Shown piece by piece: positions 13,976 through 49,849 of a DNA stretch of 64,000 bases. Position 1 is the stretch's first letter; each line of letters starts with the position of its first letter. The notes under the pieces are model-generated. The model saw only the letters and a program-made list of their open reading frames with translations, did no database searches and had not been told where the DNA came from. Origin of the DNA: Acutalibacteraceae bacterium (GTDB lineage Bacteria > Bacillota > Clostridia > Oscillospirales > Acutalibacteraceae); assembly GCA_045588995.1 (NCBI GenBank), contig JAZNFF010000044.1:6174-70173 (forward strand), given 5' to 3'. The translations under genes were made by a program, and so were the position numbers.

Positions 13976-14090
13976 GTGTTTTTAGACGTGGAAATAAATC
14001 CCCAGTTCTACTGGGGGAAGATAAAAAAGTAGGGCTACAATAAACCGTGGCGAGGTGAGTGCCAAGCCACAAAGAAATATTGGAAAGAAT

Positions 14091-14151
14091 TAAACCTCCA
14101 AGTATAATGGTAGTGGTTTGGCGACCGCATTACCAAGGACTTGGAGGTTTA
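14091..14151 (+). promoter_or_regulatory. RBS-sequestering stem-loop in the tnpA leader
   Basis: A perfect 13-bp stem pairs TAAACCTCCAAGT (14091-14103) with ACTTGGAGGTTTA (14139-14151). The 3' arm contains the GGAGG Shine-Dalgarno of tnpA. IS200 is known to repress translation this way. Confidence 0.65.
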
Positions 14152-14154
14152 ATT

Positions 14155-14628: not shown

Positions 14629-14773
14629 GCAAAAAAAGACAGCCACACGTGAGCGGCTGCCCGAGATGGTAATGCGTTGCCAAACTTTTGAGGCCCTTTT
14701 TAGTGACCTAGCCAGTAGGCGCCCCTTATAGGGGCTGTGCATACCACTAGTTTACTAGTGGTTATGATTGCTA

Positions 14774-17717: not shown

Positions 17718-17736
17718 TTTTCAGAAGGAAAAGAAT

Positions 17737-18624
17737 ATGAGAGATTTTGTAATATTCGGTGATTCCACCTGCGATTTAAGTAAGGAATTGCGAGAGAAAT
17801 ATTCAATAAAATATATGGCTATGAATTTCACCGTTGATGACGTGGAATATGAGGCATCGCTTGATTGGGATGAAGCCGCCGCTAAGAATCATTATGATAT
17901 TATGCGCGGCGGAAAGAGGGTTTTTACAACCCAAGTTCCCAAAACTGTTTATTATGATAGTTTTAAATCTGCTTTAAGTGAAGGCAAGGATGTTTTATAT
18001 ATTTCTTGTTCCTCTGCATTGTCTGCATCTATTAATACTGCAAGAATTGTTGCAAAAGAACTAAAAGAGGAATATACGGATTTTCAAATTTGTTGCGTGG
18101 ATTCCCTTATAAGTTCACTCGGTCAAGGTTATCTTTTAATTGAGGCTGCAAAATGCCGTGATAACGGTATGGGTGCCGATGAAACCGCTAAATACATAGA
18201 GGATATCAGATTAAGAGTTAACCAGTGCGGTACGGTTGAATCAATGGAATATTTACGCCGCGCAGGCAGAGTTAAAGCATCCAAAGCATTTTTTGGCAAC
18301 CTTTTTGGTGTTAAACCCATAATTATTTCAGATATTAAGGGTCAGAATTATGCATATAAAAAGGTTAAGGGTACAATTAACGCCAGAGTTGCCATAGCAG
18401 ACCATATTGTTACTGCGGCAAACGGAAATTATGATACCCTTTTAATTTCTCATGCCGACTGTTTGGAAGATGCCATCCTTTTAAAAGATGAAATCTTAAA
18501 GAAGGCAGATTTCAAAGAAGTTATTTTGGGATATATCGGTCCTATCGTTGGAGCATCGGTTGGTCCCGGTACTGTTATTGCCTTTACTTTCGGCGAGGAA
18601 GTAAAGGTTGAGGGGAATGAATAA
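17737..18624 (+). CDS. degV: DegV-family fatty-acid-binding protein (FakB-type), second copy
   Basis: Reads MRDFVIFGDSTCDL... and SCSSALSASIN. The start is placed at the ATG at 17737, because the track ORF from 17695 overlaps the previous gene. Confidence 0.88.
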   Translation: MRDFVIFGDSTCDLSKELREKYSIKYMAMNFTVDDVEYEASLDWDEAAAKNHYDIMRGGKRVFTTQVPKTVYYDSFKSALSEGKDVLYISCSSALSASINTARIVAKELKEEYTDFQICCVDSLISSLGQGYLLIEAAKCRDNGMGADETAKYIEDIRLRVNQCGTVESMEYLRRAGRVKASKAFFGNLFGVKPIIISDIKGQNYAYKKVKGTINARVAIADHIVTAANGNYDTLLISHADCLEDAILLKDEILKKADFKEVILGYIGPIVGASVGPGTVIAFTFGEEVKVEGNE

Positions 18625-18626
18625 CC

Positions 18627-20261
18627 ATGCAGCAATTTATTGATGGAATTACTTTAAATGATGCATTTACATTGGGATACTATAATCTCAAGAAAAATGC
18701 TGATATAATAAATGATTTGAATGTTTTTCCCGTGCCCGATGGCGATACGGGAACAAATATGTGTCATACATTTTTTGGGGGTATTTCTTCTATTTCACCC
18801 CAAAGTAATATAGATAAATATATGAAAGAACTCGGTCAAGCCATTTTGCTTTCCGCTCGAGGTAATTCGGGTGTAATTTTCTCGCAGATAATATGCGGAA
18901 TGGCACGTGGATTTGCAGATATGGAAAGCGTATCTTTCAGTGATTTAAAGATACCGTTTGCTTGCGCCGTGGAGGATGCGTATAAGTCAATAATCGCACC
19001 AACCGAGGGAACAATATTAACGGTTATCCGCGTAGCTTCTGAATTTATGCAGGATAATGCCCATAAATATTCCGATTTCGCTTCGGGTTTTGAAGCGGTA
19101 ATTTCGGTAATGAAGGATGCTCTTGAAAAGACACCCGAAATGTTGCCGGTGCTAAAAGAAGCAAATGTAGTTGATAGTGGCGCCGCAGGGTTGGTTTGCT
19201 TTTTCGAAGGAATCCATTCCTATTTTTGCGGGGGTTCTTTAGAAGATGTTGAAGAGATAAATTTAAAGGTTTCTAAAGAAAACGCCATAGGCACCAACTT
19301 TGGACCCGATAGCGTAATGGAATATGGATACTGTACGGAATTTATACTTCAACTGATGAATTCCAAAACCGATATCGATAACTTTTCCAAAGAAGAATTT
19401 TTGAAGCCTCTTCAAACTATGGGCGACTCAATCGTTTTGGTTGTTAGCGGGGGAATAGTAAAGGTTCATATCCATACCTTTGCTCCCGAAGAAGTTTTGG
19501 CATATGCAAGAAATTTTGGTGAATTTGTCACTTTGAAAATTGAGAATATGTCGGTGCAACATAGTGAAACCGTAACCGCTTCCAAAAAGGAAAAGGTTAG
19601 GTATGCTATCGTTACTGTTGCTTCCGGCGAAGGAATCATCGATTATTTTTATAGCATAGGCGCTACGGCGGTTATAAATGGAGGACAGACTAATAACCCA
19701 TCCGTTGATGATTTTTTACTTTCCTTCGAGAAGTTCGATGCCGAGCATATTATTTTGTTACCTAATAACTCAAATATAATACTTACCGCAAATCAGGTTG
19801 CTAAGCTTTATAAGGAAGCAGATGTGCGCGTTATTCCTACAAAATCAATCGTAGAAGGGTATAGCGCCCTTTCAATGATGGACCTTTGGTGCGATGATGT
19901 TGAAGTATTGATTTCTGATATGACTGCGGGACTTTCCGAAGTGGTTTCTTGCTCCGTTACTACGGCTACAAGGGATGCGGTCATTGATGGCGTTGATATA
20001 AAGAAAGACCGATTTATTGGTATAAAAAACAAGGAAATTAAGAATTGTTGTGAAGGCCGTTTTGAAGCCGTAATAGAACTTATTAATACTGTTATGGAGG
20101 AAGATAATAAATCGGTAATAATCGTATTTTACGGTCAAAATGTAAATTCCCAGGAGATCGATGAATTAAAGGATTATCTGGAAAATGAATATCCCTTGGT
20201 GGATTTGGGATTTATTGACGGTAAACAGGATATATACGACTATATAATCTCAATGGAATAG
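18627..20261 (+). CDS. fakA: DAK2-domain fatty acid kinase subunit FakA (YloV family)
   Basis: 544 aa. It has an N-terminal DhaL/DAK2 motif (FPVPDGDTGTNM) and a C-terminal DegV-like/FakA domain. It lies directly after the two DegV genes. Confidence 0.85.
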   Translation: MQQFIDGITLNDAFTLGYYNLKKNADIINDLNVFPVPDGDTGTNMCHTFFGGISSISPQSNIDKYMKELGQAILLSARGNSGVIFSQIICGMARGFADMESVSFSDLKIPFACAVEDAYKSIIAPTEGTILTVIRVASEFMQDNAHKYSDFASGFEAVISVMKDALEKTPEMLPVLKEANVVDSGAAGLVCFFEGIHSYFCGGSLEDVEEINLKVSKENAIGTNFGPDSVMEYGYCTEFILQLMNSKTDIDNFSKEEFLKPLQTMGDSIVLVVSGGIVKVHIHTFAPEEVLAYARNFGEFVTLKIENMSVQHSETVTASKKEKVRYAIVTVASGEGIIDYFYSIGATAVINGGQTNNPSVDDFLLSFEKFDAEHIILLPNNSNIILTANQVAKLYKEADVRVIPTKSIVEGYSALSMMDLWCDDVEVLISDMTAGLSEVVSCSVTTATRDAVIDGVDIKKDRFIGIKNKEIKNCCEGRFEAVIELINTVMEEDNKSVIIVFYGQNVNSQEIDELKDYLENEYPLVDLGFIDGKQDIYDYIISME

Positions 20262-20268
20262 GTGTTTT

Positions 20269-21243
20269 ATGAGGAAATTTGTTGTTGATATTTATGGTGC
20301 AGATGCGGGAACCCGTGTTATAGTTTCGGGTGTTGCCGATGCTATAAAAAAGTTAGGTATTTTTCCCGTATTGATTGGTGAGCGTGATGAAATAAATCGT
20401 TGTATGTCATCTTGCGGTATCGCCGAAAATCGATATGAGGTTATCCATACCACCGATTTTATTACCAACAACGATTCTCCTTCTTGTATTTTCGGCGGCA
20501 GGGATGAAAGTTCTATTGCCTTGGCATATAAAAAACTAAAAGAAGATGAAGATTGTATAGGTCTGCTTTCTGCAGGAAATACGGGCGCTCTATTGGTGGG
20601 CGCTATGTGTCGACTCGGATTATTGCCTTCCATAAAATTTCCTTCCCTTTGTAGCGCGCTGCCATGCGCTAGTGAAAAATTATTAACCCTTGTTGATTGC
20701 GGCTCTATCATTGATTGTACCGCCAACGATTTGGTGCGATTTGCCAAGATGGGAAATGTATTTTCAAAATGTTACTGCGGTATTGATAATCCCCGCGTGG
20801 GACTTATGTCTGTAGGAAGAGAAGATACAAAGGGTAGCGCCCTTACTTTAGAGGCATTCAAAAAACTAAAGGAAACAGATATTAATTTTATCGGAAATTT
20901 AGAGGGAAGCGATATGGTTTCAGGATATGCCGATGTTGTGGTTTCTGATGGATTTTCAGGGAATATTCTATTGAAAAATACCGAAGCAGTTGGAAAAAAG
21001 GCATTGGAAACCGTAGAAAAAATCGACGGCATTGATGCCGAAATATTAGAAAAAATAAAGACCGCTTTACTTGCAAAATTTGATTTTAATTCCAGAGGAG
21101 CCGCAACGTTTTTGGGCACCAAAAAAATCGTTGTTAAGATGCACGGTTGCGCGAAAAGTGATACTGTTGTCGCTTCCATTGAGCAAATCTTGCGCCTTGC
21201 CGATGCGGATTTTTCAGGCGAGATGTCTAAAATGTTTTGCTAA
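20269..21243 (+). CDS. plsX: phosphate acyltransferase PlsX
   Basis: 324 aa. It shows PlsX-type motifs SAGNTGAL, DGFSGNILLK and KMHG. Confidence 0.88.
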   Translation: MRKFVVDIYGADAGTRVIVSGVADAIKKLGIFPVLIGERDEINRCMSSCGIAENRYEVIHTTDFITNNDSPSCIFGGRDESSIALAYKKLKEDEDCIGLLSAGNTGALLVGAMCRLGLLPSIKFPSLCSALPCASEKLLTLVDCGSIIDCTANDLVRFAKMGNVFSKCYCGIDNPRVGLMSVGREDTKGSALTLEAFKKLKETDINFIGNLEGSDMVSGYADVVVSDGFSGNILLKNTEAVGKKALETVEKIDGIDAEILEKIKTALLAKFDFNSRGAATFLGTKKIVVKMHGCAKSDTVVASIEQILRLADADFSGEMSKMFC

Positions 21244-21249
21244 AAAAAT

Positions 21250-21276
21250 AAAGACAAACATTTTATGTTTGTCTTT
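21250..21276. terminator. bidirectional hairpin terminator between convergent plsX and the GT2 gene
   Basis: Stem AAAGACAAAC / GTTTGTCTTT with a 7-nt loop. It is A-rich upstream and T-rich downstream. Confidence 0.7.
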
Positions 21277-21284
21277 ATATTCTT

Positions 21285-22307
21285 TTATTCCTTTGATACC
21301 GAGGCCACAAATATCATCTGATGCAAAAAATATTTTAGCGGCATACAAATTAAATATGCTATATTAAAGTTGGCAAAGAGTGAAAATTCGGGGAACATAT
21401 AGGAGAAAAGGCAACACATTAAGGTATATATAAAATAATATATAACGGTGTAAAATGTAGTTGTCAGATATTCTCCAAGCGGTATTTTTTTGAGAAAAAC
21501 AAATTTATTTAATCCCATATGTATAAGAAGTGATAATGCGCCAACCGTTGGGACTACAAAACCTATATAATTATTATTGAAAAACAAACTGCCTATAAAC
21601 ATTAATATTTCCATTGCCACGAAGGATAAAATGGTTCCGAAAGCCAGTGAAAATAAACTTTTATAAATTCTCACGGTATCAGCAACGGGGTTAAAATGAG
21701 AGGATGCATTGTTTTCGATATAAATCGCATCAATGGTAAGGGTGGTAATTTTAAGACCCATTTTGGCGGCATAGTAAAGAACATTCATTTCATAATCGTA
21801 GTTGCTTTTTTCAACCTCAATCATCCATTCAAGATGACACCGATTAAAGCCGCGCAGACCCGATTGGTTATCCGAAAGATATTTATTGGTAAGCAGAGTA
21901 TAAACAATTTTGGAAAGATCGTTACCAAACCTTGAGCGGAACGGAATTTTACCTTTTCTCTGGCGTACGGTTAAAACAAACTTATTTCCGAGATGCAAAG
22001 TATTTTTTACCCTTAAAACATCGGCGGGCCGATGTTGACCGTCTGCGTCGCATGTGATAAAATTCTCACATAGAGGCAGATTATCTTTAACATACCGCAT
22101 ACCCGCCTTAAGCGCCGCGCCTTTGCCGCTATTGCTAGATAGTGTTACAATATGTGATTTGTCGTTTATAGCGGAGAAGATATCTTCATAGTCCTTTCCG
22201 CTGCCATCATTTACTACTACGATTTCAAAATTGTTTTCTTTGAGTTCGTCAACGATTTCAATTAAACGATGGTCTGGCTGATATGCCGGTATTATAACAA
22301 CATCCAT
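21285..22307 (-). CDS. family-2 glycosyltransferase fused to a C-terminal GtrA-like 4-TM domain
   Basis: 340 aa. Reads VVIIPAYQP...VVVNDGS...CDADGQH (GT-A, DxD-type). The C-terminal ~120 aa form about four hydrophobic helices, GtrA-like. Confidence 0.8.
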   Translation of the reverse strand: MDVVIIPAYQPDHRLIEIVDELKENNFEIVVVNDGSGKDYEDIFSAINDKSHIVTLSSNSGKGAALKAGMRYVKDNLPLCENFITCDADGQHRPADVLRVKNTLHLGNKFVLTVRQRKGKIPFRSRFGNDLSKIVYTLLTNKYLSDNQSGLRGFNRCHLEWMIEVEKSNYDYEMNVLYYAAKMGLKITTLTIDAIYIENNASSHFNPVADTVRIYKSLFSLAFGTILSFVAMEILMFIGSLFFNNNYIGFVVPTVGALSLLIHMGLNKFVFLKKIPLGEYLTTTFYTVIYYFIYTLMCCLFSYMFPEFSLFANFNIAYLICMPLKYFLHQMIFVASVSKE

Positions 22308-22322
22308 TAATAATAACCTTCT

Positions 22323-23273
22323 TTATCTCGTGTTTTTAATTAAAAATTTATTTATTTCATCCATTAAATTGTCATCCGCAGAACCGTCTTTGGAAAACAA
22401 TAAATCTGTGTGTCCTGAATTTTCGGGGGCAGTACATAAAAGATATTCTGTTTTATCGTTCTTAATTTTATCTTTGTGGGAAAAAATTGAGTGCTTATCT
22501 ATAGGTATGGATTCGTCATTTTCGCCGTGTATAATCAATGCGGGAACATTGCTTTCAGATAAAACTTTATCTGCGGATAGGTTAACTGTTTTACTGCCGA
22601 AAAGCGAAACTTGATATAACCATAAAAATCCGTAATTCGTATAGGCAAGATTTCCGATATATCGGGAACTTGAGCCGATAATTCCGTCCATAGCGCTGTT
22701 AATACCGCTTATTGAAACTACGGCGGAAATATCGTATCCGTATGATAAAGCGCAACAAGCGGCATATCCGCCGCGGCTATGTCCCATAAGAACTATTTTA
22801 TTATAATCTAACCTGTTTTGGTTTTCTATAAATTCAATGGTTGCTTTTAAATCCAGAATTTCTTGCGGAAATCCAATAGCGGAGTCACCGTCGGATGTGC
22901 AACTACCCGTTGGGTTGAAGGCAAAAACCGACCAACCGCATTCAAGCAGTTCGTATATCTGCCATAAATAGTTATCGGAACAAGCGTAATGACCGGGCGC
23001 CAGAATAATAAGAGTATCGTTTTTATCCCGCGCAACGCTTTTATACAGATAGCCCGAAAGCATATTATTGCCCGATGGATACCTATAATCCTTTCTGGAT
23101 GCGACCAACTGTTTGATTTCATCTGAATCAATATCTATATTGCATTCGTACCGTGTGAAAACGCTATCGTAAATAATTTTTGTAGCAGTAAAGGATAATA
23201 ATATAAATATTAAAGCGGCAATAATAATGATTTTCAACACCTTTTTGTTTTTGTTGGTTATCATTATTATCAC
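22323..23273 (-). CDS. membrane-anchored alpha/beta-fold hydrolase (Ser nucleophile)
   Basis: 316 aa with an N-terminal TM helix. The elbow is LMGHSRGG, followed by HGENDE and NSGHTD. Its architecture matches the hydrolase at 15646-16599. It sits 15 nt upstream of the GT2 gene. Confidence 0.75.
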   Translation of the reverse strand: MIIMITNKNKKVLKIIIIAALIFILLSFTATKIIYDSVFTRYECNIDIDSDEIKQLVASRKDYRYPSGNNMLSGYLYKSVARDKNDTLIILAPGHYACSDNYLWQIYELLECGWSVFAFNPTGSCTSDGDSAIGFPQEILDLKATIEFIENQNRLDYNKIVLMGHSRGGYAACCALSYGYDISAVVSISGINSAMDGIIGSSSRYIGNLAYTNYGFLWLYQVSLFGSKTVNLSADKVLSESNVPALIIHGENDESIPIDKHSIFSHKDKIKNDKTEYLLCTAPENSGHTDLLFSKDGSADDNLMDEINKFLIKNTR

Positions 23274-23308
23274 CTCTTTTATGTGTTTTAAATCAAAGGG
23301 GAGAGAGA

Positions 23309-24286
23309 ATGAGATACATTCCGAATTATGAACTGAACATTATTAATGAAGATGAATTTCCCGCCGCTATAAAGAAAATCGAGGAAAAACTTGAGCAAAT
23401 CAAGGTAAGCGGTACCTTTACCGCATTTGACGGTATAAATATTTCCTACGAATATTTTTTGGCGGAAAACAGTAACGCTTCGGTAGTTATTGTCCACGGG
23501 CTCAGTGAATTTACAAGAAAATTCTATGAGTTTATTTATTATCTTCTAAATATGGGATTGAACGTTTTTATTTACGATCAGCGTTGTCACGGGCTTTCAG
23601 ATAGATTGACCGATAATATAGAACTTCTGCACGTTGATGATTTTGATGATTATGTAAAAGACCTTTCGCAGTTTATTGATGAGGTTGTGCTAAAAACTGA
23701 GGATAAACCGCTATATCTATATTCCAATTCTATGGGCGGCGCAATAAGCGCACTGTATTTGTCCCAAAATTCATCGAAAATAGAAAAGGCCATACTTGCA
23801 GTGCCTATGTTTGAACCTATTGTCGATTATGTTCCGATGTCTATTGCCCGCATGGGTGTTGCGGTCGGGAAATTAGTTTATGGCGGAAAAACCAAATTTC
23901 TTTTAACAAAAGATTTTAATCCCAATGTTCAGTATAGGGTAGAGCATGGCTCGAGTCGAGCAAGATTCGAGCATAATATGGATTTGCGAAGAGAAAATCC
24001 TAATTATCGTTCAACTCCGATGTCTTTTGGTTGGATTTATAATTCGTTGACGGTTAAAAGAAGAATTTTTAGGCTAAAGATTATCAATGAAATCAAAACG
24101 CCGATTCTGATAATTTCAGCAGAAAAAGATGCTACAGTAAATAACAAACTTCATTATAAGTTTTTAAATAAATGTAAAAACTGCAGGTTAGAGAATATAG
24201 AAAATTCTGCCCACTCAATATTAGTTAACGATATAGAAACTATGAGTAGGATAATGAATCTTATTTTTGAGTTTTATTCGAAGTAG
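23309..24286 (+). CDS. alpha/beta hydrolase, lysophospholipase/monoacylglycerol-lipase-like (PldB-like)
   Basis: 325 aa. Reads VIVHGLSEF...DQRCHGLSD, elbow SNSMGG, then SAEKDATV and NSAHS. RBS GGGGAGAG lies upstream. Confidence 0.75.
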   Translation: MRYIPNYELNIINEDEFPAAIKKIEEKLEQIKVSGTFTAFDGINISYEYFLAENSNASVVIVHGLSEFTRKFYEFIYYLLNMGLNVFIYDQRCHGLSDRLTDNIELLHVDDFDDYVKDLSQFIDEVVLKTEDKPLYLYSNSMGGAISALYLSQNSSKIEKAILAVPMFEPIVDYVPMSIARMGVAVGKLVYGGKTKFLLTKDFNPNVQYRVEHGSSRARFEHNMDLRRENPNYRSTPMSFGWIYNSLTVKRRIFRLKIINEIKTPILIISAEKDATVNNKLHYKFLNKCKNCRLENIENSAHSILVNDIETMSRIMNLIFEFYSK

Positions 24287-24899
24287 ATTCCTGCGCTTGT
24301 GAAATTCTTTTGGCTTCATCAAAAGCGGCTCTGAAAATCGCTTCTATTATTCTCACGACTTTAACGCAAATCACAACATCAAAAGAATAAGAACTTTCTT
24401 TGGCTTCATAATCGCAGGAGATATTTATTTTTTCGCCTCTGGGCCTTACCTTAATTACAGAGCGCAAAAGGCCAAGTAGCGGGCATACAACGGCGTAGCA
24501 CATACCGTAATTCATAGCGGTTTGAGCCGCATCTTCATCCGCGCAAATAATATCAATATGCAGGGTTTTTACGGAGCAGTATTTTAACAGTTGAAGTAAT
24601 CGCTTTAGCAGACCGATGATAAGCGAGAAACTATCCTTGAAATTTTCGAGCATTCCGATTTTTTCGGAATTGTTTTGGAAGTTTTTCTTATCAAGTCGGG
24701 TAACGCCGAGCGTTTGTTTCAGAACCTTTATAATAGGTTGGTTGGGATCGGGATCTTCGCCAAATGTTTTCCAAAGAATTTTATATCTGATTATTACTTC
24801 ATCGTTTTCATCGGTTTTGATGATAATGTAAACGGGCAAAAGCAAAATAATGGTTATAAGAATAACTATAAATGCAAGTATTCCCAGGAAAATATACAT
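24261..24899 (-). CDS. hypothetical N-terminally anchored membrane protein (possibly DUF2953-like)
   Basis: It has an N-terminal TM helix (YIFLGILAFIVILITIILLLPV) and no recognisable catalytic motif. The ATG at 24899 is preferred because GGTGG lies 8 nt upstream. Its 3' end overlaps the convergent hydrolase gene by 26 nt. Confidence 0.5.
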   Translation of the reverse strand: MYIFLGILAFIVILITIILLLPVYIIIKTDENDEVIIRYKILWKTFGEDPDPNQPIIKVLKQTLGVTRLDKKNFQNNSEKIGMLENFKDSFSLIIGLLKRLLQLLKYCSVKTLHIDIICADEDAAQTAMNYGMCYAVVCPLLGLLRSVIKVRPRGEKINISCDYEAKESSYSFDVVICVKVVRIIEAIFRAAFDEAKRISQAQESTSNKTQK

Positions 24900-24953
24900 A
24901 GCGTTCACCACCGATTCGTATCAATAAAAGTAAAATAGTTAGGGGGGATAGGT

Positions 24954-25508
24954 TTGCAATGGCAAATAGGTAGAATTGCGGATATTGATAATAAGTGTTA
25001 CGAGGAAATTTATTTAAATCTTTCCGCATCAAGAAAGGCGCATATCGATAAAATGAAAAAGGAAGATGCCAAAAAATCTTCCCTTTTGGCTACACATATT
25101 ATGAACTGCCTTCTCGAAAAAAGCGGAACTAAAAATGCCATACTTGAAACTGATGAAAAGGGCAGACCTTATCTCAAAGGAAGCGATATGTTTATAAGCA
25201 TATCCCATAGTTGCGATATGGTTGCTTGCGCCATAGATAATAAACCCATCGGCATTGATATAGAAAAAATCAAACCCGTAACCGAGAAATTTATTAAATT
25301 CGTATGCACCGAATCAGAGCAAGAGTATATTTTGGACGAAAATTTGACCGATTCTGAAAAATCGCAAAGATTTTTTGAAATTTGGACCGCCAAAGAGGCC
25401 GTTTTCAAACAAAATGAGACCGCTAGCGGTATCCGAGCCATAGATACTATGAATATGGAAAAACAAACCTTCACCGTTGATGGTTATCAGGTAACAATAG
25501 TAATATAA
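24954..25508 (+). CDS. Sfp-type 4'-phosphopantetheinyl transferase
   Basis: 184 aa with a TTG start after GGGGGG. Reads ISISHS, PIGIDIEK (metal-binding Asp/Glu) and WTAKEAVFK, the Sfp-family signature motifs. Confidence 0.85.
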   Translation: MQWQIGRIADIDNKCYEEIYLNLSASRKAHIDKMKKEDAKKSSLLATHIMNCLLEKSGTKNAILETDEKGRPYLKGSDMFISISHSCDMVACAIDNKPIGIDIEKIKPVTEKFIKFVCTESEQEYILDENLTDSEKSQRFFEIWTAKEAVFKQNETASGIRAIDTMNMEKQTFTVDGYQVTIVI

Positions 25509-25913
25509 TTATTTTTTCAGTTTTTTGCGGATTTCAGAGCGTACGCTCTCTACAAAAGACGAAGTATTTGTGCCGAAAACACAACTGTTTACAAAATGTT
25601 CGCAGTTATTATAAAGAATATCATAACCGCCCTCTCCGATACGCGAGCGGGCGATTTTTATTATTTCCTTTGGGCTTCTCATCCGCTTTTTTTCTTCTCT
25701 TGCGGGAATAGCGGTTTCAAGTTCGCCGCCGCCTAAAAAGGTGATAATATCGGTGGCGATGACCCTAATATTTTCAGATAGGTTAGAGGGGGCATTCGGA
25801 AGACCAAACTGTATTATCTCATCATCACTGATAAAAATGCCGTAATGATAATAAAAACTAACCTTAGTTCTTATGATTTGCGAGGGTTTAGGTAGTTTAT
25901 CCGACCATATCAT
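25509..25913 (-). CDS. LRAT/PLAAT-family (NlpC/P60 superfamily) papain-like acyltransferase/phospholipase homologue
   Basis: 134 aa. The His box is YHYGIFISD and the catalytic Cys sits in the hallmark NCEHF motif. Its start overlaps the upstream carrier gene by 4 nt (ATGA). Confidence 0.8.
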   Translation of the reverse strand: MIWSDKLPKPSQIIRTKVSFYYHYGIFISDDEIIQFGLPNAPSNLSENIRVIATDIITFLGGGELETAIPAREEKKRMRSPKEIIKIARSRIGEGGYDILYNNCEHFVNSCVFGTNTSSFVESVRSEIRKKLKK

Positions 25914-26152
25914 AAATCGGCCTTCTTTTCAATAAGCAAAATCACATCGCCCACGGTGGCAATCTTTGTAAAATCGTCGTTGGAAAATTTTATACCAAAC
26001 TCCTCTTCAATGGCAAGGGCCATATACAAAATACCAATGGAGTTTAGGTTTATATCTGTTATAAGGTTTGATTCAGGCGTGATTTTAGAAATATCAATAT
26101 CATCATCAAAAACCGCGGTACAAACTTCAAGTAGTTTTTCAAATGTGTTCAT
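25910..26152 (-). CDS. stand-alone acyl/peptidyl carrier protein
   Basis: 80 aa, acidic. The candidate phosphopantetheine attachment Ser lies in DINLNSIGILYMALAIEEEFG, at the start of helix II. Confidence 0.8.
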   Translation of the reverse strand: MNTFEKLLEVCTAVFDDDIDISKITPESNLITDINLNSIGILYMALAIEEEFGIKFSNDDFTKIATVGDVILLIEKKADL

Positions 26153-26155
26153 AAA

Positions 26156-27439
26156 TTATCCTCCGATTTTATTGCTGTAAGCCGATTTACAACGGTTAAT
26201 TTCATCAAGTAAAAGCCGTGTTACATTTTGAATATCGGTGGTACTTGGAAATTTTTTAGAAGAAATATCTTTTGGGTTTACGGCGTTGCCGATAAAAACC
26301 GTTCTACTTTTATACCAATGTTCGCGAGGTACAATATACATTGGTATAATCGGTACACCCGCGCGAAACGCCATAAGTACGGCTCCCGATTTTATAGAAT
26401 CGATATCATCTTCTCTATGTATTTCTCCTTGGGGGAATACGGTCAATAAATACTGCTTTTTTAGTTTGTCTACAGATTTATTGATGGCTTCAATATCTGT
26501 GCTTTGTCGGTCTATTTTTATTGCTCCAACGCCCTTAAGCAACAGGGCGCGAAGTTTACCCTTCATAACTATTTCGGCAACCAAAAAGTGCATTCTTCTA
26601 TACCAAAATGTTATGCCTACGATAAATGGGTCGAAAAACGAGGTGTGATTGGCGGTGATTATGGCTCCGCTTTTAATTTTTTGGGTGTATTTTTCTCCGT
26701 CGGGTGTCAGTCGTTTTATACGAACTATTGGCAATAAAACGCTGCATACCAAACGGGCAATGTCCATTGGTATGTGTTTTAAATTAAATAAAGGGTGTTT
26801 ATTCTGCATTATTTCCATTTCGCCCTTTAATTCGTGAACCTTTTGTTCCATAATTTTAGTAAGATGGGTAATCTGCTCTTGGCTGTCTTGCTTTTCACTG
26901 TCACAGTAATTAGCCGCATAAATGGGTTTTCCTATGCAAACGTGCGCCCGTTTAAATAGTCCGTAATTTCCATCGGTATAAACGGGAATTATGGGTGCAT
27001 CGGAATGCAGAGCTATAAAGGCCGTGCTGGTGGTGAAAGGCCAGGGTTTGTTATTTATGGGCAAACGGGCTTCAGGGAAAACTCCGATGGCGCCTCCTTT
27101 ATCCAAAACCTCAATGGCTTCAGACATAAAGGAAAATTCTCGCTCATCCCGTTCTACCTTGATTCCTCCCCAAGAATTCAATAGGAAAGAAAAGAATCCA
27201 CCCTTATTATAAAGCACTTCGGCTATCAAAAAATGTATGGTTCTGAAGGGAAATACAAGTAAATAAAGCACAAAGTCAAGAAGAGATTTGTGGTTAGATA
27301 CCAATATGCAATTTTTAGGCAAACGGCGTTTAGCGCCATCTTGCACATAAACCTTTGGCTTTAAAAATAAGAGGGCGGGGAAAATGCCTGTTATTTTAGT
27401 AAAAAGCAGAAATAAATTAATAAACCATTTGTTTTTCAT
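26156..27439 (-). CDS. tandem (double) PlsC/LPLAT-family acyltransferase
   Basis: 427 aa with two complete modules. Module 1 has HX4D NHKSLLD and FPEARL. Module 2 has HX4D NHTSFFD and FPQGEI. The N-terminus is hydrophobic. Confidence 0.85.
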   Translation of the reverse strand: MKNKWFINLFLLFTKITGIFPALLFLKPKVYVQDGAKRRLPKNCILVSNHKSLLDFVLYLLVFPFRTIHFLIAEVLYNKGGFFSFLLNSWGGIKVERDEREFSFMSEAIEVLDKGGAIGVFPEARLPINNKPWPFTTSTAFIALHSDAPIIPVYTDGNYGLFKRAHVCIGKPIYAANYCDSEKQDSQEQITHLTKIMEQKVHELKGEMEIMQNKHPLFNLKHIPMDIARLVCSVLLPIVRIKRLTPDGEKYTQKIKSGAIITANHTSFFDPFIVGITFWYRRMHFLVAEIVMKGKLRALLLKGVGAIKIDRQSTDIEAINKSVDKLKKQYLLTVFPQGEIHREDDIDSIKSGAVLMAFRAGVPIIPMYIVPREHWYKSRTVFIGNAVNPKDISSKKFPSTTDIQNVTRLLLDEINRCKSAYSNKIGG

Positions 27440-27440
27440 A

Positions 27441-29354
27441 TCAAATTCGTTTTTCTATATATTCACAAATATCTTTTACGGTATAGTAGTATTTATCACT
27501 TTTTTCATAATCGGTTATGGAGAATTCTTCCGAAAGTTTTGAAAGTATTGAAAAATACTGTATACTTGTAGCGCCTAAATCGTAGAAAATATGGGCGTGA
27601 TTATCGAAATTCTCTTGTTTTGTACCGAGAACTTCTGCAACTATTGCCTTAACTTTAAGGGTTAGGGGAGAATTATCATCGGTGGAGGCGCTCGATTTCA
27701 TATCGGTGAATAAAGTGAGATTAACCTCTTTATTATTGATTTTTTTGAGCAACTGTGCGCGACTTACCTTAATAGCGGTGGGCGGGCACAAATTATCTGT
27801 TGTAAAATAGAATTTTTTAATTGCAATGGCTTTAGGCAGTGTATCATTTATTTCATAAACATCATTGCGGATTTTTGAAAGTTTACTATCAGAAATAAAC
27901 TCACTAACCTGAACAACAATAGAAATTTCTTGACCGTCATTGCCTTCTAAACCTAAAACGGAAAAGGATTTTGCATCGGGGAGGGTGAATAGTTTCTCAA
28001 CGCTGTCGGGATTTATGTTTTCTCCGTTTTCGCCGATTACCATATCACCCATACGGCCTAATATATAGTATCTGCCGTCTTTAAGTTCGACTTTATCTCC
28101 GGTAGAAAACCAACCGCTCGGTATCTGTTCCTCGCCGTTTATAAGTTTTTTAACGCAAATAGAACTGCCCTTTACTTGCAGAACACCGTTATCATCAATA
28201 GAATATTCAACGGATGAAAAGGGCTTTCCTACAGAATTTAAATTACGGTATTTTGGTTTTCTGCCAAGTTCTACTGAAGTTATTCCGATTTCGCTTGTGC
28301 CGTAACCGTTGTAGGTATTATATCCAATACCGTTTAAAAATTTAAGGGTACTTTCTTTTATATAACTTCCGCCGTTAATACAAAACATAATGGATTTGCC
28401 AAAAACTTTATCGGTAACTTCCTTCATAAGCGATTTGGCAATTTCAGAGCCAAAAGAGGGGAAGAGGTTTTGAATGGCGGTGGAAATTTTTATACCGCGC
28501 ATAAGTTTATTATACTTTTTATCCCCTTGTTCCTTTGCTGTGGCTATAACCGTTTTTTCAATGGTGTGCCATAGCATAGGGACTGCAAATATATGAGTCA
28601 CCTCGTGTTTACGGCAGGTTTTGAGAATTGTATCTGAAGAGTAGTTTCTTAAAAATACGAGAGTTCTTCCGAAAAATGTAAACCAGAAATATACGGCAAA
28701 AAGGCCGAAAACGTGGTAAAAAGGCAGGAAGGCGAGTTGCTTTAATTGACCTTTATAATGCTTTGCTATTCGCGGCTCCGCTTTTATGATGCCTTCAAAA
28801 TTCAGTATCTGCTCTGATATCTGGTGACCTGTATAGAAACAAATTACCTCGTTCATTGTGGTAGCAGAAGATGAGAAGGCGATTTCATCTTCAAATTCAT
28901 TTTCGGGTATCTCTTTTTCGCCTTTAAGTTCGGAAACAGAAATACTTTTGCCCGAAAGTTCAATATCACCGCTGCAAACGATATACTCTATCCCAAGGGT
29001 TTTGAGGATATTGTTTGTCAAAGAGTTGGGATATCGAAGGTTGACAAGGTATGGCTTATTTCCGCTTTTTAATATTGCCCAGAATGCAACAATCCATTCC
29101 GTAGAATTATCCATAGAAAGAGCAATATACTTATGCGTGGCACCGAGTTTCTCATATAAACCCGATGCGGCAACTTCTATTTTTTCGGCAACTTGTCCGT
29201 AAGTTTCCTTTTTTATGCGGTAACCGTCGTTATATTCGCAGAGAATATTATCTTTGCAGTTAAACATTATTCGGTAAATATCGCTGAGCTTTTTTTGGGA
29301 ATTTTTAAGCGCATCTCGGTTGTAGCGAATAACCTTTTTTAAATTCTTATTCAT
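27441..29354 (-). CDS. ANL-superfamily adenylating enzyme (acyl/aminoacyl-AMP ligase) fused to a C-terminal carrier (T) domain
   Basis: 637 aa. Core motifs are GYGTSE (A5), WFSTGD (A7), GRMGDMVIGENGENINP (A8) and a Lys in PPTAIKVSR (A10). The C-terminal carrier motif is FYDLGATSIQ. The P-loop region reads FSSSATTMNEV, which is degenerate. Confidence 0.85.
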   Translation of the reverse strand: MNKNLKKVIRYNRDALKNSQKKLSDIYRIMFNCKDNILCEYNDGYRIKKETYGQVAEKIEVAASGLYEKLGATHKYIALSMDNSTEWIVAFWAILKSGNKPYLVNLRYPNSLTNNILKTLGIEYIVCSGDIELSGKSISVSELKGEKEIPENEFEDEIAFSSSATTMNEVICFYTGHQISEQILNFEGIIKAEPRIAKHYKGQLKQLAFLPFYHVFGLFAVYFWFTFFGRTLVFLRNYSSDTILKTCRKHEVTHIFAVPMLWHTIEKTVIATAKEQGDKKYNKLMRGIKISTAIQNLFPSFGSEIAKSLMKEVTDKVFGKSIMFCINGGSYIKESTLKFLNGIGYNTYNGYGTSEIGITSVELGRKPKYRNLNSVGKPFSSVEYSIDDNGVLQVKGSSICVKKLINGEEQIPSGWFSTGDKVELKDGRYYILGRMGDMVIGENGENINPDSVEKLFTLPDAKSFSVLGLEGNDGQEISIVVQVSEFISDSKLSKIRNDVYEINDTLPKAIAIKKFYFTTDNLCPPTAIKVSRAQLLKKINNKEVNLTLFTDMKSSASTDDNSPLTLKVKAIVAEVLGTKQENFDNHAHIFYDLGATSIQYFSILSKLSEEFSITDYEKSDKYYYTVKDICEYIEKRI

Positions 29355-29355
29355 A

Positions 29356-29898
29356 TCAGTAGTAGAAAACCTCAGAAGTTAATAATGCTAAAAAACCAAT
29401 GAAAAGTGATGCGGCATATATGATAATACCAATCAAACCGAAGATTTTACCAAGACGGCTAAAGGTGGAAGTATCGCCTGCATTGATGCACTTATTGGAA
29501 AAAACAAATCCAACAATGGAAAAGGGTAAATAGAATATAGATAGGATAAATGCAACAACGAATGATGCGGGGGGTTCAACAAGAGCCACCGTAGAATATA
29601 TAGCGGTAATTATTGATAAAACAAAACCGCCAATAGATAAACCCATACCAACAATTTTAAATGCTAGACTGGGTTTCTTAACGGGAGGATAAGCATAATT
29701 GTTGGGGTTATAGGTTTGTTCGTATGTAGGATTATAATTCTGCTCATATGCATTTTGAGCGGACTCAACAACTACATTTTCTACCGCCTCGGCAGATGTT
29801 TCTTGAATAGGTTGTTCCTCTGACATTTGCGCACCGCATAAGGGGCAGAAATTGATTTTTTCTTCACTGGTGTGATTACATTTAGGGCATATACACAT
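29356..29898 (-). CDS. zinc-ribbon membrane protein with a Y/N/Q/P-rich linker
   Basis: 180 aa. It has CPKC...CPLCG at the N-terminus and the repeat YEQNYNPTYEQTYNPN, followed by about 4 TM helices. It ends 1 nt upstream of the ANL gene. Confidence 0.6.
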   Translation of the reverse strand: MCICPKCNHTSEEKINFCPLCGAQMSEEQPIQETSAEAVENVVVESAQNAYEQNYNPTYEQTYNPNNYAYPPVKKPSLAFKIVGMGLSIGGFVLSIITAIYSTVALVEPPASFVVAFILSIFYLPFSIVGFVFSNKCINAGDTSTFSRLGKIFGLIGIIIYAASLFIGFLALLTSEVFYY

Positions 29899-30090
29899 AA
29901 AAATACCTCCAAGGTTATAAGTTGAATATAGTATATCATATTAGGCGACAATTTTCAACATTACTTTTATATTATATACTAATATATCTGTATACAATGA
30001 GGGGCAGAAAAATTTTAAAACCAAAGAAAATAAAAATAGTTATCTTTTTGTGTGTTATTTAATTTTGAACTTTAAATGCATCTGCTTTTT

Positions 30091-35041: not shown

Positions 35042-35881
35042 ATGTTCGGTTATATTAAAGCGGATAAGCCCGAACTCAAAATTAAAGAGTTTGAGGCGTA
35101 TAAAGCGGTGTATTGCACCCTTTGTAAGAAACTCGGTAAAAATTACGGGTTTATATCCCGCCTGACTTTAAGTTATGATTTCACTTTTTTGGCTATGCTG
35201 AATATGTCCCTTAAGGACGGTTGCCCCGTTTATGAGCAAAAGTGTTGCGCTTTTAATCCCCTTAAAAAGTGTAACTATTGCAAGGAAACCGAAGATTTAG
35301 AAATGCCTTGCGCCGCGGCAATGATACTGTTATACTATAAGATATTGGATAATATATCCGATGAAAAGGGCTTTAAAAAGCTCGGATTCAAAATTTTAAA
35401 GCCAATATTTTCGGGGGCTCATAAAAAGGCGTCAAAGGCATATCCTCAGATAGAGGAGTGGGTGAAAGAATATATCGAAACCCAAACCAAACTCGAAAAG
35501 AGAAATTGCGATAGTTTGGATATGGCCGCCGATCCTTCGGCTTTGATGCTTTCGAAACTTTTTACCCTTTGTAGCAGTGACCAAAAGCAGAAACGAGTTT
35601 TAGAGCGGCTTGGATATTGCCTCGGAAGATATATCTATATTCTTGATGCCGTAAATGATTTGCCGAAGGATATTAAAACGGGCAACTATAATGTTTTTAA
35701 AAATACACAAGAAAATGAGACCTTTGATAAAGCCAAAGCCCAGCTTTATTTTTGTATAAGCGAGGCGGCAAAGGCATTTGAACTTCTTGAAATTAAAAAA
35801 TATGAAACCATTCTCGGTAATATAATATATTTAGGTTTGGAACGAAATTTGGAGGAACTGAAAAATGAAAGATCCGTATGA
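35042..35881 (+). CDS. DUF5685-like Cys-rich protein of unknown function
   Basis: 279 aa. Reads MFGYIKADKPELKIKEFEAYKAVYCTLCKKLG..., with further Cys at CC and CNYC, and ILDAVNDLPKDIKTGNYN. I recognise the family only as uncharacterised. Confidence 0.6.
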   Translation: MFGYIKADKPELKIKEFEAYKAVYCTLCKKLGKNYGFISRLTLSYDFTFLAMLNMSLKDGCPVYEQKCCAFNPLKKCNYCKETEDLEMPCAAAMILLYYKILDNISDEKGFKKLGFKILKPIFSGAHKKASKAYPQIEEWVKEYIETQTKLEKRNCDSLDMAADPSALMLSKLFTLCSSDQKQKRVLERLGYCLGRYIYILDAVNDLPKDIKTGNYNVFKNTQENETFDKAKAQLYFCISEAAKAFELLEIKKYETILGNIIYLGLERNLEELKNERSV

Positions 35882-36476
35882 AGTTTTAGGCATCGGCAGA
35901 AATGCTACTGATGAACAGGTAAAAGATGCCTATAGAAATCTTGCAAGAAAATATCATCCCGATAATTATGGCGATAACCCTCTTTCAGATTTGGCGCAAG
36001 AAAAGATGAAGGAGATTAACGAGGCCTATGATTCTATAATGAACGAGCGTAAAAATGGCTCGTCAAATAGAAAAAATGGCGGCAGTTATCAGTCATCTGG
36101 ACCTTCGGCATTTCCTGAGGTTCGTTCGCTTATAAATCAAGGTCGACTTGAACAAGCCCAAGAATTATTGGATGGAGTTCCGCCTCAGTCAAGAAATGCT
36201 GAGTGGTACTTCTTAAACGGCACCGTTCTATATAGGAGAGGTTGGTTTGACCAAGCGTATACAAGTTTCGTAACCGCCTCCAGAATGGACCCTTATAATA
36301 CCGAGTATCAAAATGCAGTTCGTAACGCTCAAAGGCAGAGCGCGGGTCAGTATAATAATCCATACCGTTCATACGGCGGAGCAAGTAGTTGCACAGGTTG
36401 TGATGTTTGTCAAGGACTAATCTGCGCTGACTGTTGCTGTGAGTGTATGGGCGGGGACCTGATTCGTTGTTGCTAA
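35865..36476 (+). CDS. J-domain protein with a TPR-like middle region and an extremely Cys-rich C-terminal tail
   Basis: 203 aa. The J domain is DPYEVLGI...KYHPD. The tail CTGCDVCQGLICADCCCECMGGDLIRCC has 10 Cys in the last 28 aa. It overlaps the upstream gene by 17 nt. Confidence 0.8.
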   Translation: MKDPYEVLGIGRNATDEQVKDAYRNLARKYHPDNYGDNPLSDLAQEKMKEINEAYDSIMNERKNGSSNRKNGGSYQSSGPSAFPEVRSLINQGRLEQAQELLDGVPPQSRNAEWYFLNGTVLYRRGWFDQAYTSFVTASRMDPYNTEYQNAVRNAQRQSAGQYNNPYRSYGGASSCTGCDVCQGLICADCCCECMGGDLIRCC

Positions 36477-37088: not shown

Positions 37089-38339
37089 ATGAGCAAACTA
37101 ATTATAATCGGCGGCGGAGCCGCAGGTCTTATGGCGGCAATAAGTGCTGCCAAGGCGGATAATAAGGCCGAAATTACGGTTATAGAAAGAAACTCCCGCC
37201 CCGCAAGAAAGGTTATGATAACGGGTAAGGGAAGATGTAATGTTACGAATAATTGTGATATTGATACCCTTATTTCTAATGTTTCTCATAATGGAAAATT
37301 TTTATATTCCGCCTTTAATTCTCTTTCCGCAAAAGATACTTATGATATGTTTGAAGAGTGGGGAGTACCCCTCAAAACCGAAAGAGGTAATAGAGTTTTT
37401 CCCGTTTCGGATAAAGCGGTAGATATTGTTGATGCCCTTGTAAAGAACGCAAAGAAAAACTGCAAAATCATAGAAGGCAGAGCCCGAAGTATAGAAGTAA
37501 ATGATGGAAAAGTTTGCGGCGTTCGTTTGGAAAACGGGGAGTTTCATAGTGGAGATAGCGTTATTTTAGCAACGGGCGGTATGTCCTATTCGGTAACGGG
37601 CTCCAGCGGTGATGGATATAAAATGGCCGAAAACATAGGCCATACCGTAACCGATATTAAGCCATCTTTAATTCCCCTTGAGTGTCACGAAGGATTTTGC
37701 TCAAGGTTGTCGGGTTTAACTCTTAAAAATGTAACCTTATCAGTTTTTGAAGAAGGAAAGAAAAAACCTATTTTCAGCGAACTCGGTGAAATGCTTTTTA
37801 CCCATTTCGGCATATCCGGACCCTTGGTGTTAAGCGCATCGGCGCATATTAAAGATTTTAATAATAAGGCATATAAAGCGGTTATCGATTTAAAACCCGC
37901 CTTGACTATGGAACAACTTGATAAGCGAATTTTAAGGGATTTTTCCGAAGAACTTAATAAGGATTTTTCAAACTCCTTGGATGCGCTTCTTCCAAAAAGT
38001 TTAATTCCCATAATTGTTTCTTTATCGGGCATATCACCAAGTGTAAAGGTTAACCAGATAAGCCGCGAAGAACGGCTTAAACTTGCAGAATTAATTAAAG
38101 GTTTTACCCTTAAAATAACGGGGACAAGACCTATTGATGAAGCAATTATAACAAGGGGCGGTATCCCCATTAAAGAAATTAATTCATCAACTATGGAATC
38201 AAAACTTGTAGATGGCCTTTATTTTGCAGGTGAAATTATAGATGTAGATGCCTATACGGGCGGATTTAATCTGCAGATCGCCTTTTCTACGGGATACCTT
38301 GCGGGTAAAAATTCAGTTTTAAGAGGAGAAAATATATGA
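37089..38339 (+). CDS. NAD(P)/FAD-dependent oxidoreductase, HI0933/YhiN (BaiN-like) family
   Basis: Dinucleotide fold IIIGGGAAGLMAA and the motif ITGKGRCNVTN, which is typical of the HI0933 family. The start is placed at the ATG at 37089. Confidence 0.85.
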   Translation: MSKLIIIGGGAAGLMAAISAAKADNKAEITVIERNSRPARKVMITGKGRCNVTNNCDIDTLISNVSHNGKFLYSAFNSLSAKDTYDMFEEWGVPLKTERGNRVFPVSDKAVDIVDALVKNAKKNCKIIEGRARSIEVNDGKVCGVRLENGEFHSGDSVILATGGMSYSVTGSSGDGYKMAENIGHTVTDIKPSLIPLECHEGFCSRLSGLTLKNVTLSVFEEGKKKPIFSELGEMLFTHFGISGPLVLSASAHIKDFNNKAYKAVIDLKPALTMEQLDKRILRDFSEELNKDFSNSLDALLPKSLIPIIVSLSGISPSVKVNQISREERLKLAELIKGFTLKITGTRPIDEAIITRGGIPIKEINSSTMESKLVDGLYFAGEIIDVDAYTGGFNLQIAFSTGYLAGKNSVLRGENI

Positions 38340-49836: not shown

Positions 49837-49849
49837 AAGGAATGTGGAT

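Follow-up and report, generated by a model that had tools for sequence, protein, structure and literature searches.

Positions 24954–29898 of a 64,000-nucleotide stretch of DNA from an Acutalibacteraceae bacterium (assembly GCA_045588995.1, contig JAZNFF010000044.1; the whole stretch is called the window here) carry a gene cassette whose four core genes form a conserved, undescribed addition to the fatty-acid-kinase locus. The core encodes an enzyme of the adenylate-forming ANL superfamily fused to an acyl-carrier (T) domain (ANL-T), a protein with two consecutive lysophospholipid acyltransferase (LPLAT) domains of the PlsC type, a free acyl carrier protein (ACP) and a papain-like cysteine enzyme of the LRAT/PLAAT family. 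We tentatively propose that these four genes make up a carrier-dependent machine, similar in kind to Aas and ElbD, that would use scavenged fatty acids to (re)acylate glycerolipids.

Relatives of the cassette are widespread and remain tied to fatty-acid activation genes. A word-indexed protein search returned 89 close homologues of the tandem LPLAT, all from metagenomes or metagenome-assembled genomes (MAGs), and an exhaustive search with a tandem-LPLAT profile yielded 483 clusters at 50% identity (E ≤ 1e-30), with relatives encoded in 283 species-representative genomes. Hosts are mainly gut and rumen Acutalibacteraceae, Oscillospiraceae, Faecousia and Lachnospiraceae, together with Bacilli and 'Mollicutes' MAGs, Faecalibacillus and Anaeroplasma, and include the cultured Anaeroplasma bactoclasticum ATCC 27112. 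We fetched 84 loci, searched their open reading frames (ORFs) with the window proteins and counted linkage within 10 kb of the core in the 43 loci that have at least 7 kb of sequence on both sides. ANL-T, FakA and DegV/FakB are each present in 43/43 of these well-flanked loci, the free ACP in 42, PlsX in 40 and the LRAT-like protein in 37; two alpha/beta hydrolases (ABH1 and ABH2) follow with 34 loci each, a membrane GT2 glycosyltransferase with 33 (including Anaeroplasma), a PldB-like hydrolase with 31, a Zn-ribbon protein and a DUF2953 protein with 25 each, and an Sfp-type phosphopantetheinyl transferase (PPTase) with 23. An earlier note on this DNA, made from the sequence alone, had described a self-contained system of five genes. 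These counts reduce the core to four, leaving out the Zn-ribbon protein, and show that the system does not stand alone, as FakA and DegV/FakB always adjoin it and PlsX nearly always does. The cassette is an appendage of the fatty-acid-kinase/PlsX locus, and this linkage is the strongest clue to its function. The lipid-metabolic setting that the same note had proposed is borne out by the neighbours FakA, DegV/FakB and PlsX, and the PldB-like lysophospholipase and other hydrolases that it saw next door have Pfam matches and recur among the loci.

Gene order within the core (ANL-T, LPLAT, ACP, LRAT) is maintained at 34–38% protein identity, and the loci show at least five gene arrangements across Oscillospirales, Lachnospiraceae, Bacilli MAGs and Anaeroplasma. 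The window has the convergent-operon arrangement; in L001 and L042–L044 an apparent operon on one strand reads DegV-DegV-FakA-patatin-MFS-PlsX-ANL-T-LPLAT2-ACP-LRAT, where MFS is a major facilitator superfamily transporter and LPLAT2 the tandem LPLAT. Retention of the kinase genes across at least five arrangements indicates that selection maintains the linkage and that it is not mere inherited order, and linkage that survives rearrangement points to functional coupling with the fatty-acid kinase. The LPLAT is also found fused to every other core part: a protein of 1101 amino acids (P0368) combines AMP-binding, PP-binding and two Acyltransferase domains, two others (P0375 and P0401) combine LRAT with two Acyltransferase domains, and P0085 joins LPLAT-C to the ACP beside a separate LPLAT-N gene (L085, 8001–8876). 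These natural fusions indicate that the parts work as one unit, a view already taken in the earlier note and now supported by conserved synteny as well. Chance adjacency is ruled out by the order kept at low identity, the linkage counts and the fusions.

All six ORFs of the cassette lie where they had been placed before (Table 1), and every motif quoted for them was found in the translations. The minus-strand operon is tightly packed, with intergenic gaps of 1, 1 and 3 nt and an ATGA overlap of the ACP stop and LRAT start codons, and the PPTase gene indeed converges on and abuts it, the stop codons of PPTase and LRAT touching with 0 bases between them. The promoter-like site upstream is of the extended −10 type, and GGAGG stands 8 nt ahead of the ATG of the Zn-ribbon gene. 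Family assignments hold at the Pfam cut-offs for all proteins but the Zn-ribbon protein, whose zinc-ribbon matches (19–20 bits) fall under cut-offs of 25–27 bits. An Rfam scan of the whole 64 kb gave no family at gathering score; it found no tRNA or leader, and no riboswitch or T-box that could reveal a ligand.

Table 1. Positions of the cassette genes, their domains and the neighbouring lipid-related genes in the window
Feature	Position	Strand	Description
PPTase, Sfp-type	24954-25508	+	184 aa; TTG start; convergent on cassette
LRAT/PLAAT-type papain-like Cys enzyme	25509-25913	-	134 aa
Free ACP	25910-26152	-	80 aa
Tandem LPLAT	26156-27439	-	427 aa
LPLAT-C module	26156-26800	-	aa 214-427 + stop codon; NHTSFFD (H265/D270), FPQGEI
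LPLAT-N module	26801-27439	-	aa 1-213; NHKSLLD (H50/D55), FPEARL
ANL-T didomain	27441-29354	-	637 aa
T (acyl-carrier) domain of ANL-T	27444-27677	-	~aa 560-637; phosphopantetheine Ser in DLGATSIQ
Adenylate-forming domain of ANL-T	27720-29354	-	~aa 1-545
Zn-ribbon/transmembrane protein	29356-29898	-	180 aa; 3-4 transmembrane segments; first gene of the operon here
Promoter-like site	29930-29958	-	TTGAAA, 17 nt, TG-n-TATACT; upstream of Zn-ribbon gene; consensus match only
CE4 deacetylase with DUF3473	14774-15637	-	flanks DegV genes
ABH2, second transmembrane-anchored alpha/beta hydrolase	15646-16599	-	flanks DegV genes
DegV-family (FakB-type) fatty-acid-binding proteins, two	16782-17717, 17695-18624	+	Pfam DegV 171.6, 171.9 bits
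FakA, catalytic subunit	18627-20261	+	544 aa; Pfam Dak2, FakA-like_M, FakA-like_C
PlsX, acyl-phosphate:ACP transacylase	20269-21243	+	324 aa; Pfam FA_synthesis 239.2 bits
GT2 glycosyltransferase	21285-22307		340 aa; 3-4 C-terminal transmembrane helices; convergent on plsX
ABH1, transmembrane-anchored alpha/beta hydrolase	22323-23273	-	with the PldB-like hydrolase: Pfam Abhydrolase_1 and Hydrolase_4
PldB-like (lysophospholipase-L2-type) hydrolase	23309-24286	+	NCBIfam lysophospholipase L2 139 bits vs cut-off 362

The tandem LPLAT protein matches Pfam Acyltransferase (PF01553) in two stretches with 129.7 bits against a cut-off of 23, and both halves retain the NHxxxxD and FP[EQ] motifs. N49, H50, D55, F121 and P122 of LPLAT-N and N264, H265, D270, F335, P336 and G338 of LPLAT-C do not vary among 19 homologues, the most distant at 33% identity, and the HX4D motif, motif III and the fold place each half, only 25% identical to the other, in the PlsC/LPLAT family. 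An AlphaFold2 model (pLDDT 83.5) consists of two alpha/beta domains of similar build, with a long hydrophobic helix ahead of each; its best Foldseek match in the Protein Data Bank is PlsC (5kym), followed by plant glycerol-3-phosphate acyltransferases (GPATs), LpxM and PatA, and PlsC is likewise the best match by sequence. Among non-PlsC models, the Aas-type NCBIfam models NF005959 and NF006386 match both halves best. In 41 of the 84 loci the LPLAT is encoded by two genes that overlap and are translationally coupled, and in about an equal share by one. In L059 (9995–11265) each half has its own ORF, the first running up to an in-frame ATG of the second; this structure and its recurrence rule out a frameshift artefact behind the paired matches and indicate real, repeated gene fission and fusion.

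Both carriers and the activating domain also show the residues expected of their families. The ANL domain matches Pfam AMP-binding (PF00501) with 110.8 bits (cut-off 29.9) and the T domain matches PP-binding (PF00550) with 29.5 bits (cut-off 20.8). Across 13–17 orthologues at 37–50% identity, GYGxxE, TxD, GRxxDxxI...GENIxPxxxE, the A10 lysine K529 (IKVSR) and the T-domain serine are invariant, and the profile match together with the A5, A7, A8 and A10 signatures places the enzyme in the ANL superfamily. The free ACP scores 32.6 bits with PP-binding (cut-off 20.8), has an isoelectric point of 4.05 and carries its serine in DINLNSIG, invariant in 15 orthologues; profile and conserved serine thus mark the ACP and the T domain alike as carrier proteins. 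Both resemble the AcpP of fatty acid synthases (FAS) and not the peptidyl carriers of nonribosomal peptide synthetases (NRPS), and both stay under the AcpP equivalog cut-off of 71 bits, the free ACP reaching 49 bits with NCBIfam ACP models.

The fourth core protein is a true member of Pfam LRAT (PF04970; 65.7 bits against a cut-off of 24.3), and its partnership with carrier proteins is new. His23 (in HYG), a glutamine (in IIQFG) and Cys104 (in NNCEHF) are invariant among orthologues, the glutamine standing at the position of the second histidine of PLAAT3. The sequence matches human PLAAT3/PLA2G16, and an AlphaFold2 model (pLDDT 85.6, pTM 0.80) most closely resembles PLAAT3, PLAAT4 and PLAAT2 (TM-score 0.73–0.79), so that profile, permuted papain fold and His...Cys pair all agree with the LRAT/PLAAT family. 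The protein has no transmembrane segment, signal peptide or C-terminal membrane anchor. A search for LRAT homologues in other genomic contexts returned 209 proteins, all of them close cassette-type homologues.

Taken together with the kinase linkage, these families suggest how the machine might operate. The PPTase would turn the T domain and the free ACP from apo to holo form, and the ANL domain would adenylate a free carboxylic acid and load it on its own T domain, so that ANL-T would act as an acyl-ACP synthetase with a built-in ACP; a long-chain fatty acid obtained by scavenging is the likeliest substrate. In a parallel feed, FakB and FakA would produce acyl-phosphate from which PlsX would place the acyl group on the free ACP. 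PlsX plausibly loads the cassette ACP; in about 1.4 Mb of loci, no AcpP-like ORF other than that ACP and the T domain lies close to any of these plsX genes. The two PlsC-type domains, each apparently intact in its catalytic residues and probably membrane-associated through its N-terminal helix, would then pass two thioester-bound acyl groups to hydroxyls of a glycerol-phosphate-type acceptor (a lysophospholipid, lysophosphatidic acid or glycerol 3-phosphate), and we infer that the T domain serves LPLAT-N and the free ACP LPLAT-C. The cytosolic PLAAT-like enzyme may supply or edit the acceptor by deacylating existing or imported phospholipid, with phospholipase A1/2 activity in an exchange like the Lands cycle, or alternatively may shuttle an acyl group as a thioester. 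Salvage or remodelling fits the recurring phospholipase- and lysophospholipase-type neighbours (the PldB-like protein, the alpha/beta hydrolases and, in some loci, patatin) and the LRAT–LPLAT fusion.

Several findings weigh against this proposal. The P-loop of the ANL domain (about residues 160–172) is degenerate family-wide, reading S[ST]S[AG]T[ST]xx[EQ][KV]I without GxPKG (SSSATTMNEVI in the window) where the canonical A3 motif is [ST]SG[ST]TGxPKG; activity nevertheless seems plausible, since the loop is still rich in serine and threonine. Among solved structures the domain comes nearest to MenE (profile score 103 bits) and 4-chlorobenzoate-CoA ligase, both weak matches that rank ahead of FadD13 (63 bits), AasS (about 47) and DltA (46), and the acid that it uses cannot be read from its sequence. 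Aas-type models match only the LPLAT protein, at 55–86 bits against cut-offs of 886–1221, which sets the cassette apart from the Aas and AasS equivalogs. LPLAT-N alone scores 49.8 bits and LPLAT-C alone 70.2 bits with the PlsC model TIGR00530, whose cut-off of 102.95 is passed only by the two-domain sum of 116.7; with neither half at the PlsC cut-off and the Aas scores far under theirs, the acceptor could differ from a lysophospholipid. Loci of the Anaeroplasma type are the only ones to lack the free ACP; their order is FakA-PPTase-ANL-T-LPLAT2-LRAT, and PlsX is likewise absent from the vicinity. Several Bacilli MAGs have DegV-FakA-PlsX-(PPTase)-ANL-T-LPLAT2-ACP without LRAT, so the pairing of T with LPLAT-N and ACP with LPLAT-C is not universal. 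A cell that already has FakAB and PlsX has no evident need of an ANL activator as well, and the GT2 and CE4 genes that accompany the cassette may point to a glycolipid or to a product of the envelope.

A possible but doubtful alternative to salvage and remodelling is that the cassette is the housekeeping de novo route to phosphatidic acid in fatty-acid-auxotrophic Firmicutes. The tandem LPLAT would then act as GPAT and lysophosphatidic acid acyltransferase in place of PlsC and perhaps also of PlsY; acyl groups would be carried solely by the ACP and T domain, the clustered PPTase would be the sole PPTase, and ANL-T and FakAB/PlsX would be two feeders of exogenous fatty acid. Such a route would suit the strict linkage to FakA, DegV and PlsX, the dedicated PPTase clustered with the cassette, the lack of any other AcpP-like ORF beside plsX in the loci and the presence of PlsC and soluble GPATs among the structural neighbours of the LPLAT. 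It would also suit the lack of genes for type II fatty acid synthesis (FASII), acpP, plsY or plsC in the 64-kb window and the fetched flanks, with no plsC after cmk, an absence that speaks for the window and flanks and not for whole genomes. Carriers of the cassette include Anaeroplasma and Bacilli and 'Mollicutes' gut MAGs, which may or may not belong to RF39, a gut Bacilli order that has been reported to lack any fatty-acid synthesis (PMC6784871); this speaks for the machine proposed above as well. Such a route gives no account of why an LRAT/PLAAT enzyme is present and can be fused to the LPLAT, nor of the (lyso)phospholipase neighbours; moreover, neither LPLAT half scores as a PlsC equivalog, and the window comes from a spore-forming member of the Clostridia with an ordinary-looking core chromosome and no obviously reduced genome. 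We regard as quite unlikely a further reading that would make the cassette the main, hitherto overlooked route to membrane lipids in fatty-acid-auxotrophic gut Firmicutes, with RF39-like Bacilli, Anaeroplasma and many uncultured Oscillospirales as hosts, and the PLAAT-like enzyme an ATP-independent phospholipid:carrier-protein transacylase. In what would be a new reaction, acyl groups of host or dietary phospholipid would pass through a Cys-thioester directly to a carrier's phosphopantetheine thiol (ACP or T domain), and the tandem LPLAT would rebuild the cell's own lipids at both glycerol positions while ANL-T and FakAB/PlsX served as parallel feeders of free acid.

It is unlikely, in our judgement, that the cassette makes a specialised, non-bulk lipid. 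Candidates would be an N-acyl or acyloxyacyl lipid (N-acyl-phosphatidylethanolamine or an aminolipid, with the LRAT-like enzyme as N-acyltransferase and an LPLAT as an OlsA-like O-acyltransferase), an acylated glycolipid or lipoteichoic-acid anchor, or a head-group ester for which the ANL domain would activate an acid that is short or unusual. PLAATs are established to N-acylate phosphatidylethanolamine, OlsA belongs to the LPLAT family, and the closest ANL relatives are aryl- and dicarboxylic-acid ligases and not fatty acyl ligases. Bacterial enzymes of the NlpC/P60 type can be N-acyltransferases, LnsA being an example (PMC7387801). The membrane GT2, for which a role as polyprenyl-phosphate sugar synthase or glycolipid synthase is conceivable, travels with the island together with the CE4 deacetylase, and the CE4 and ABH2 pair lies near the cassette even in wall-less A. 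bactoclasticum (L073, 11972–13773); a 'polysaccharide' deacetylase is odd in such a host and hints at a lipid or glycolipid substrate. Yet the OlsA and OlsF matches of the LPLAT are negligible (19.3 bits against a cut-off of 300 and 17.3 against 620) and do not support an ornithine-lipid or aminolipid synthase, Pfam and NCBIfam reveal no GNAT/OlsB-type or amino-acid-handling gene in the cassette, several lineages that retain ANL-T, LPLAT2 and ACP dispense with LRAT, and the universal partners FakA, DegV and PlsX are general fatty-acid activation genes. Very improbable is an NRPS-like natural-product cluster, set among lipid genes incidentally, whose ANL domain would activate a non-lipid acid, amino or aryl, to make a small diffusible molecule. 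An ANL domain, a T domain and an Sfp-type PPTase do make up the minimal 'NRPS-like' signature, residues 51–139 of ANL-T partially match an amino-acid adenylation model (54.5 bits), and MenE, 4-chlorobenzoate-CoA ligase and McyG are among the best solved ANL relatives. However, no condensation, ketosynthase, thioesterase or reductase domain was found with Pfam and NCBIfam in the ORFs at 21285–29898, nor any ketoreductase domain in the cassette ORFs, so that membership among NRPS, polyketide synthases or FAS, which the earlier note had already denied on these grounds, does not apply. The ANL domain has the GW[FL]xTxD and GENIxP motifs of acyl- and aryl-CoA ligases, the carriers are AcpP-like, an ANL-T fused to a tandem LPLAT exists, and a 43/43 linkage to the fatty-acid kinase across rearranged loci is not incidental.

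Returning to glycerolipid (re)acylation, known systems offer partial parallels. Escherichia coli Aas is an acyl-ACP synthetase and 2-acyl-glycerophosphoethanolamine acyltransferase, and like the cassette it combines an ANL-type activator, an acyl carrier and a PlsC-family acyltransferase, re-esterifying lysophospholipids with free fatty acids. The cassette differs in its reversed domain order, in having two acyltransferase domains instead of one, in using a built-in T carrier and a second dedicated ACP in place of the housekeeping AcpP, in adding an LRAT/PLAAT enzyme and a PPTase, and in its linkage to FakAB/PlsX. The Aas partner LplT and the MFS-LPLAT-ANL fusions of NF005959 and NF006386 invite comparison with the MFS transporter in the one-strand operons; an LplT identity of the L001 MFS gene is unsupported, as it shows only weak GPH-family matches (44.6 bits). 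The earlier note had likened the cassette to an expanded Aas, which is a fair analogy, but the closer described analogue is ElbD, a multidomain protein of acyl-CoA synthetase (ACS), ACP and AGPAT-like domains (PMC9131029). In Myxococcus xanthus ElbD, which also has a FAR-like domain and serves ether-lipid biosynthesis, an adenylating domain, an ACP and a PlsC/AGPAT-type acyltransferase occur together as in the cassette, and the fused relative P0368 (ANL-T-LPLAT-LPLAT) has an architecture of the ElbD kind, the two being compared by description and not by sequence. ElbD-like proteins without the FAR domain occur in anaerobes, where they come without lipid analysis (PMC9131029). The tandem acyltransferase, separate ACP, LRAT enzyme and Fak/PlsX linkage distinguish the cassette from ElbD, and because it has no reductase domain it offers no route to fatty aldehydes, fatty alcohols or ether lipids.

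Firmicutes use a FakAB-PlsX-PlsY-PlsC pathway, and the cassette lies within or next to a DegV-DegV-FakA-PlsX operon, shares with this pathway the use of ACP and PlsC-fold acyltransferases, and plausibly draws on the same acyl-phosphate and acyl-ACP pools. By contrast, the canonical pathway lacks an ANL enzyme, an activator with a fused carrier and a PLAAT-type enzyme and has a single PlsC of about 200–240 residues, and the cassette ACP is divergent (NSIG instead of DSLD) and its LPLAT halves each fail the PlsC model. Mammalian PLAATs, HRASLS and LRAT proteins (PF04970) share the permuted papain-like fold and His/Cys pair of the LRAT-like protein; PLAATs combine phospholipase A1/2 and acyltransferase chemistry, moving a phospholipid acyl chain as a Cys-thioester to water, a lysolipid or an amine. 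The cassette enzyme differs from them in its glutamine for the third catalytic residue, a histidine, in the lack of a C-terminal anchor and in being encoded with or fused to carrier-dependent acyltransferases, a partnership that we know of for no animal PLAAT or LRAT enzyme. Staphylococcal LnsA, which acts in LnsAB lipoprotein N-acylation, is a permuted NlpC/P60 lipid acyltransferase (PMC7387801), and in our literature search it was the only bacterial permuted NlpC/P60 acyltransferase found described; unlike the LRAT-like protein it has a signal peptide, works outside the membrane and partners a CPBP-family protein in place of LPLATs and carriers. The literature searches gave no paper describing the cassette, in keeping with the earlier view that no characterised bacterial pathway is known to have this combination.

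A life on the fatty acids of other organisms is assumed for many uncultured Firmicutes of the gut and rumen, and to our knowledge analogy with Staphylococcus and Streptococcus is the only guide to how they build membrane lipids from scavenged lipids. If the cassette scavenges or remodels lipids as proposed, it would be a new branch of bacterial phospholipid metabolism and would provide the first biochemical role for bacterial LRAT/PLAAT homologues. It would also account for the FAR-less 'ElbD-like' proteins of anaerobes, point to growth factors that could help to culture the hosts and be a determinant of how diet and host lipids affect their membranes. The system is open to experiment, as its enzymes are small and soluble or peripheral, and A. 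bactoclasticum ATCC 27112 is in culture.

Two further cassette proteins are accessories outside the four-gene core. The frequent one is the PPTase, which matches Pfam ACPS (PF01648) with 51.8 bits (cut-off 25) and in length is of the Sfp type (about 180–240 residues); its nearest NCBIfam models are AusB, AcpT and HetI, all under their equivalog cut-offs. Its gene is found convergent after LRAT, directly upstream of ANL-T (Anaeroplasma) or between PlsX and ANL-T (L083). The Zn-ribbon protein is a lineage-specific accessory with a visible CxxC...CxxC pattern and hydrophobic segments at residues 78–178, and its gene occurs in one to three tandem paralogous copies upstream of ANL-T in Oscillospirales-type loci only (for example L010, L056 and L085, 3671–5316). 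A SCIFF peptide gene and its radical-SAM maturase lie just upstream of the Zn-ribbon/ANL-T cassette in L085 (2087–3371), and the window encodes a further small Zn-ribbon protein at 49844–50209.

Within the lipid island of the window, the three-domain FakA, the two DegV proteins and PlsX form a complete fatty-acid kinase/PlsX module at 16782–21243, and a perfect bidirectional terminator-like hairpin with a 14-bp stem (21248–21278) separates plsX from the GT2 gene. The 64 kb otherwise look like an ordinary core chromosome, with dcw, uvrBA, cmk, an IspH-RpsA fusion, cardiolipin synthase, relA, groEL and rps/fus/tuf genes. Between ftsZ and the lipid island, an ORF in the region 14059–14662 encodes an IS200/IS605-type Y1 transposase of 189 amino acids (Y1_Tnp, 129.6 bits), just past which a strong minus-strand terminator-like hairpin (14637–14662) has a 10-bp stem with 6 GC pairs. 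At 35042–36476 a DUF5685 protein (276 bits) overlaps the start of a DnaJ-like protein with a Cys-rich C terminus. At 38336–41076, cmk is followed, after a 4-nt overlap, by the fusion of IspH (LytB) to an RpsA-like protein with four S1 domains (690 amino acids), with no acyltransferase gene between them. Further lipid enzymes scoring above their cut-offs are the cardiolipin synthase at 41193–42734 (TIGR04265, 352 bits) and a YegS/DagK-type lipid kinase at 55355–56275 (TIGR00147, 131 bits).

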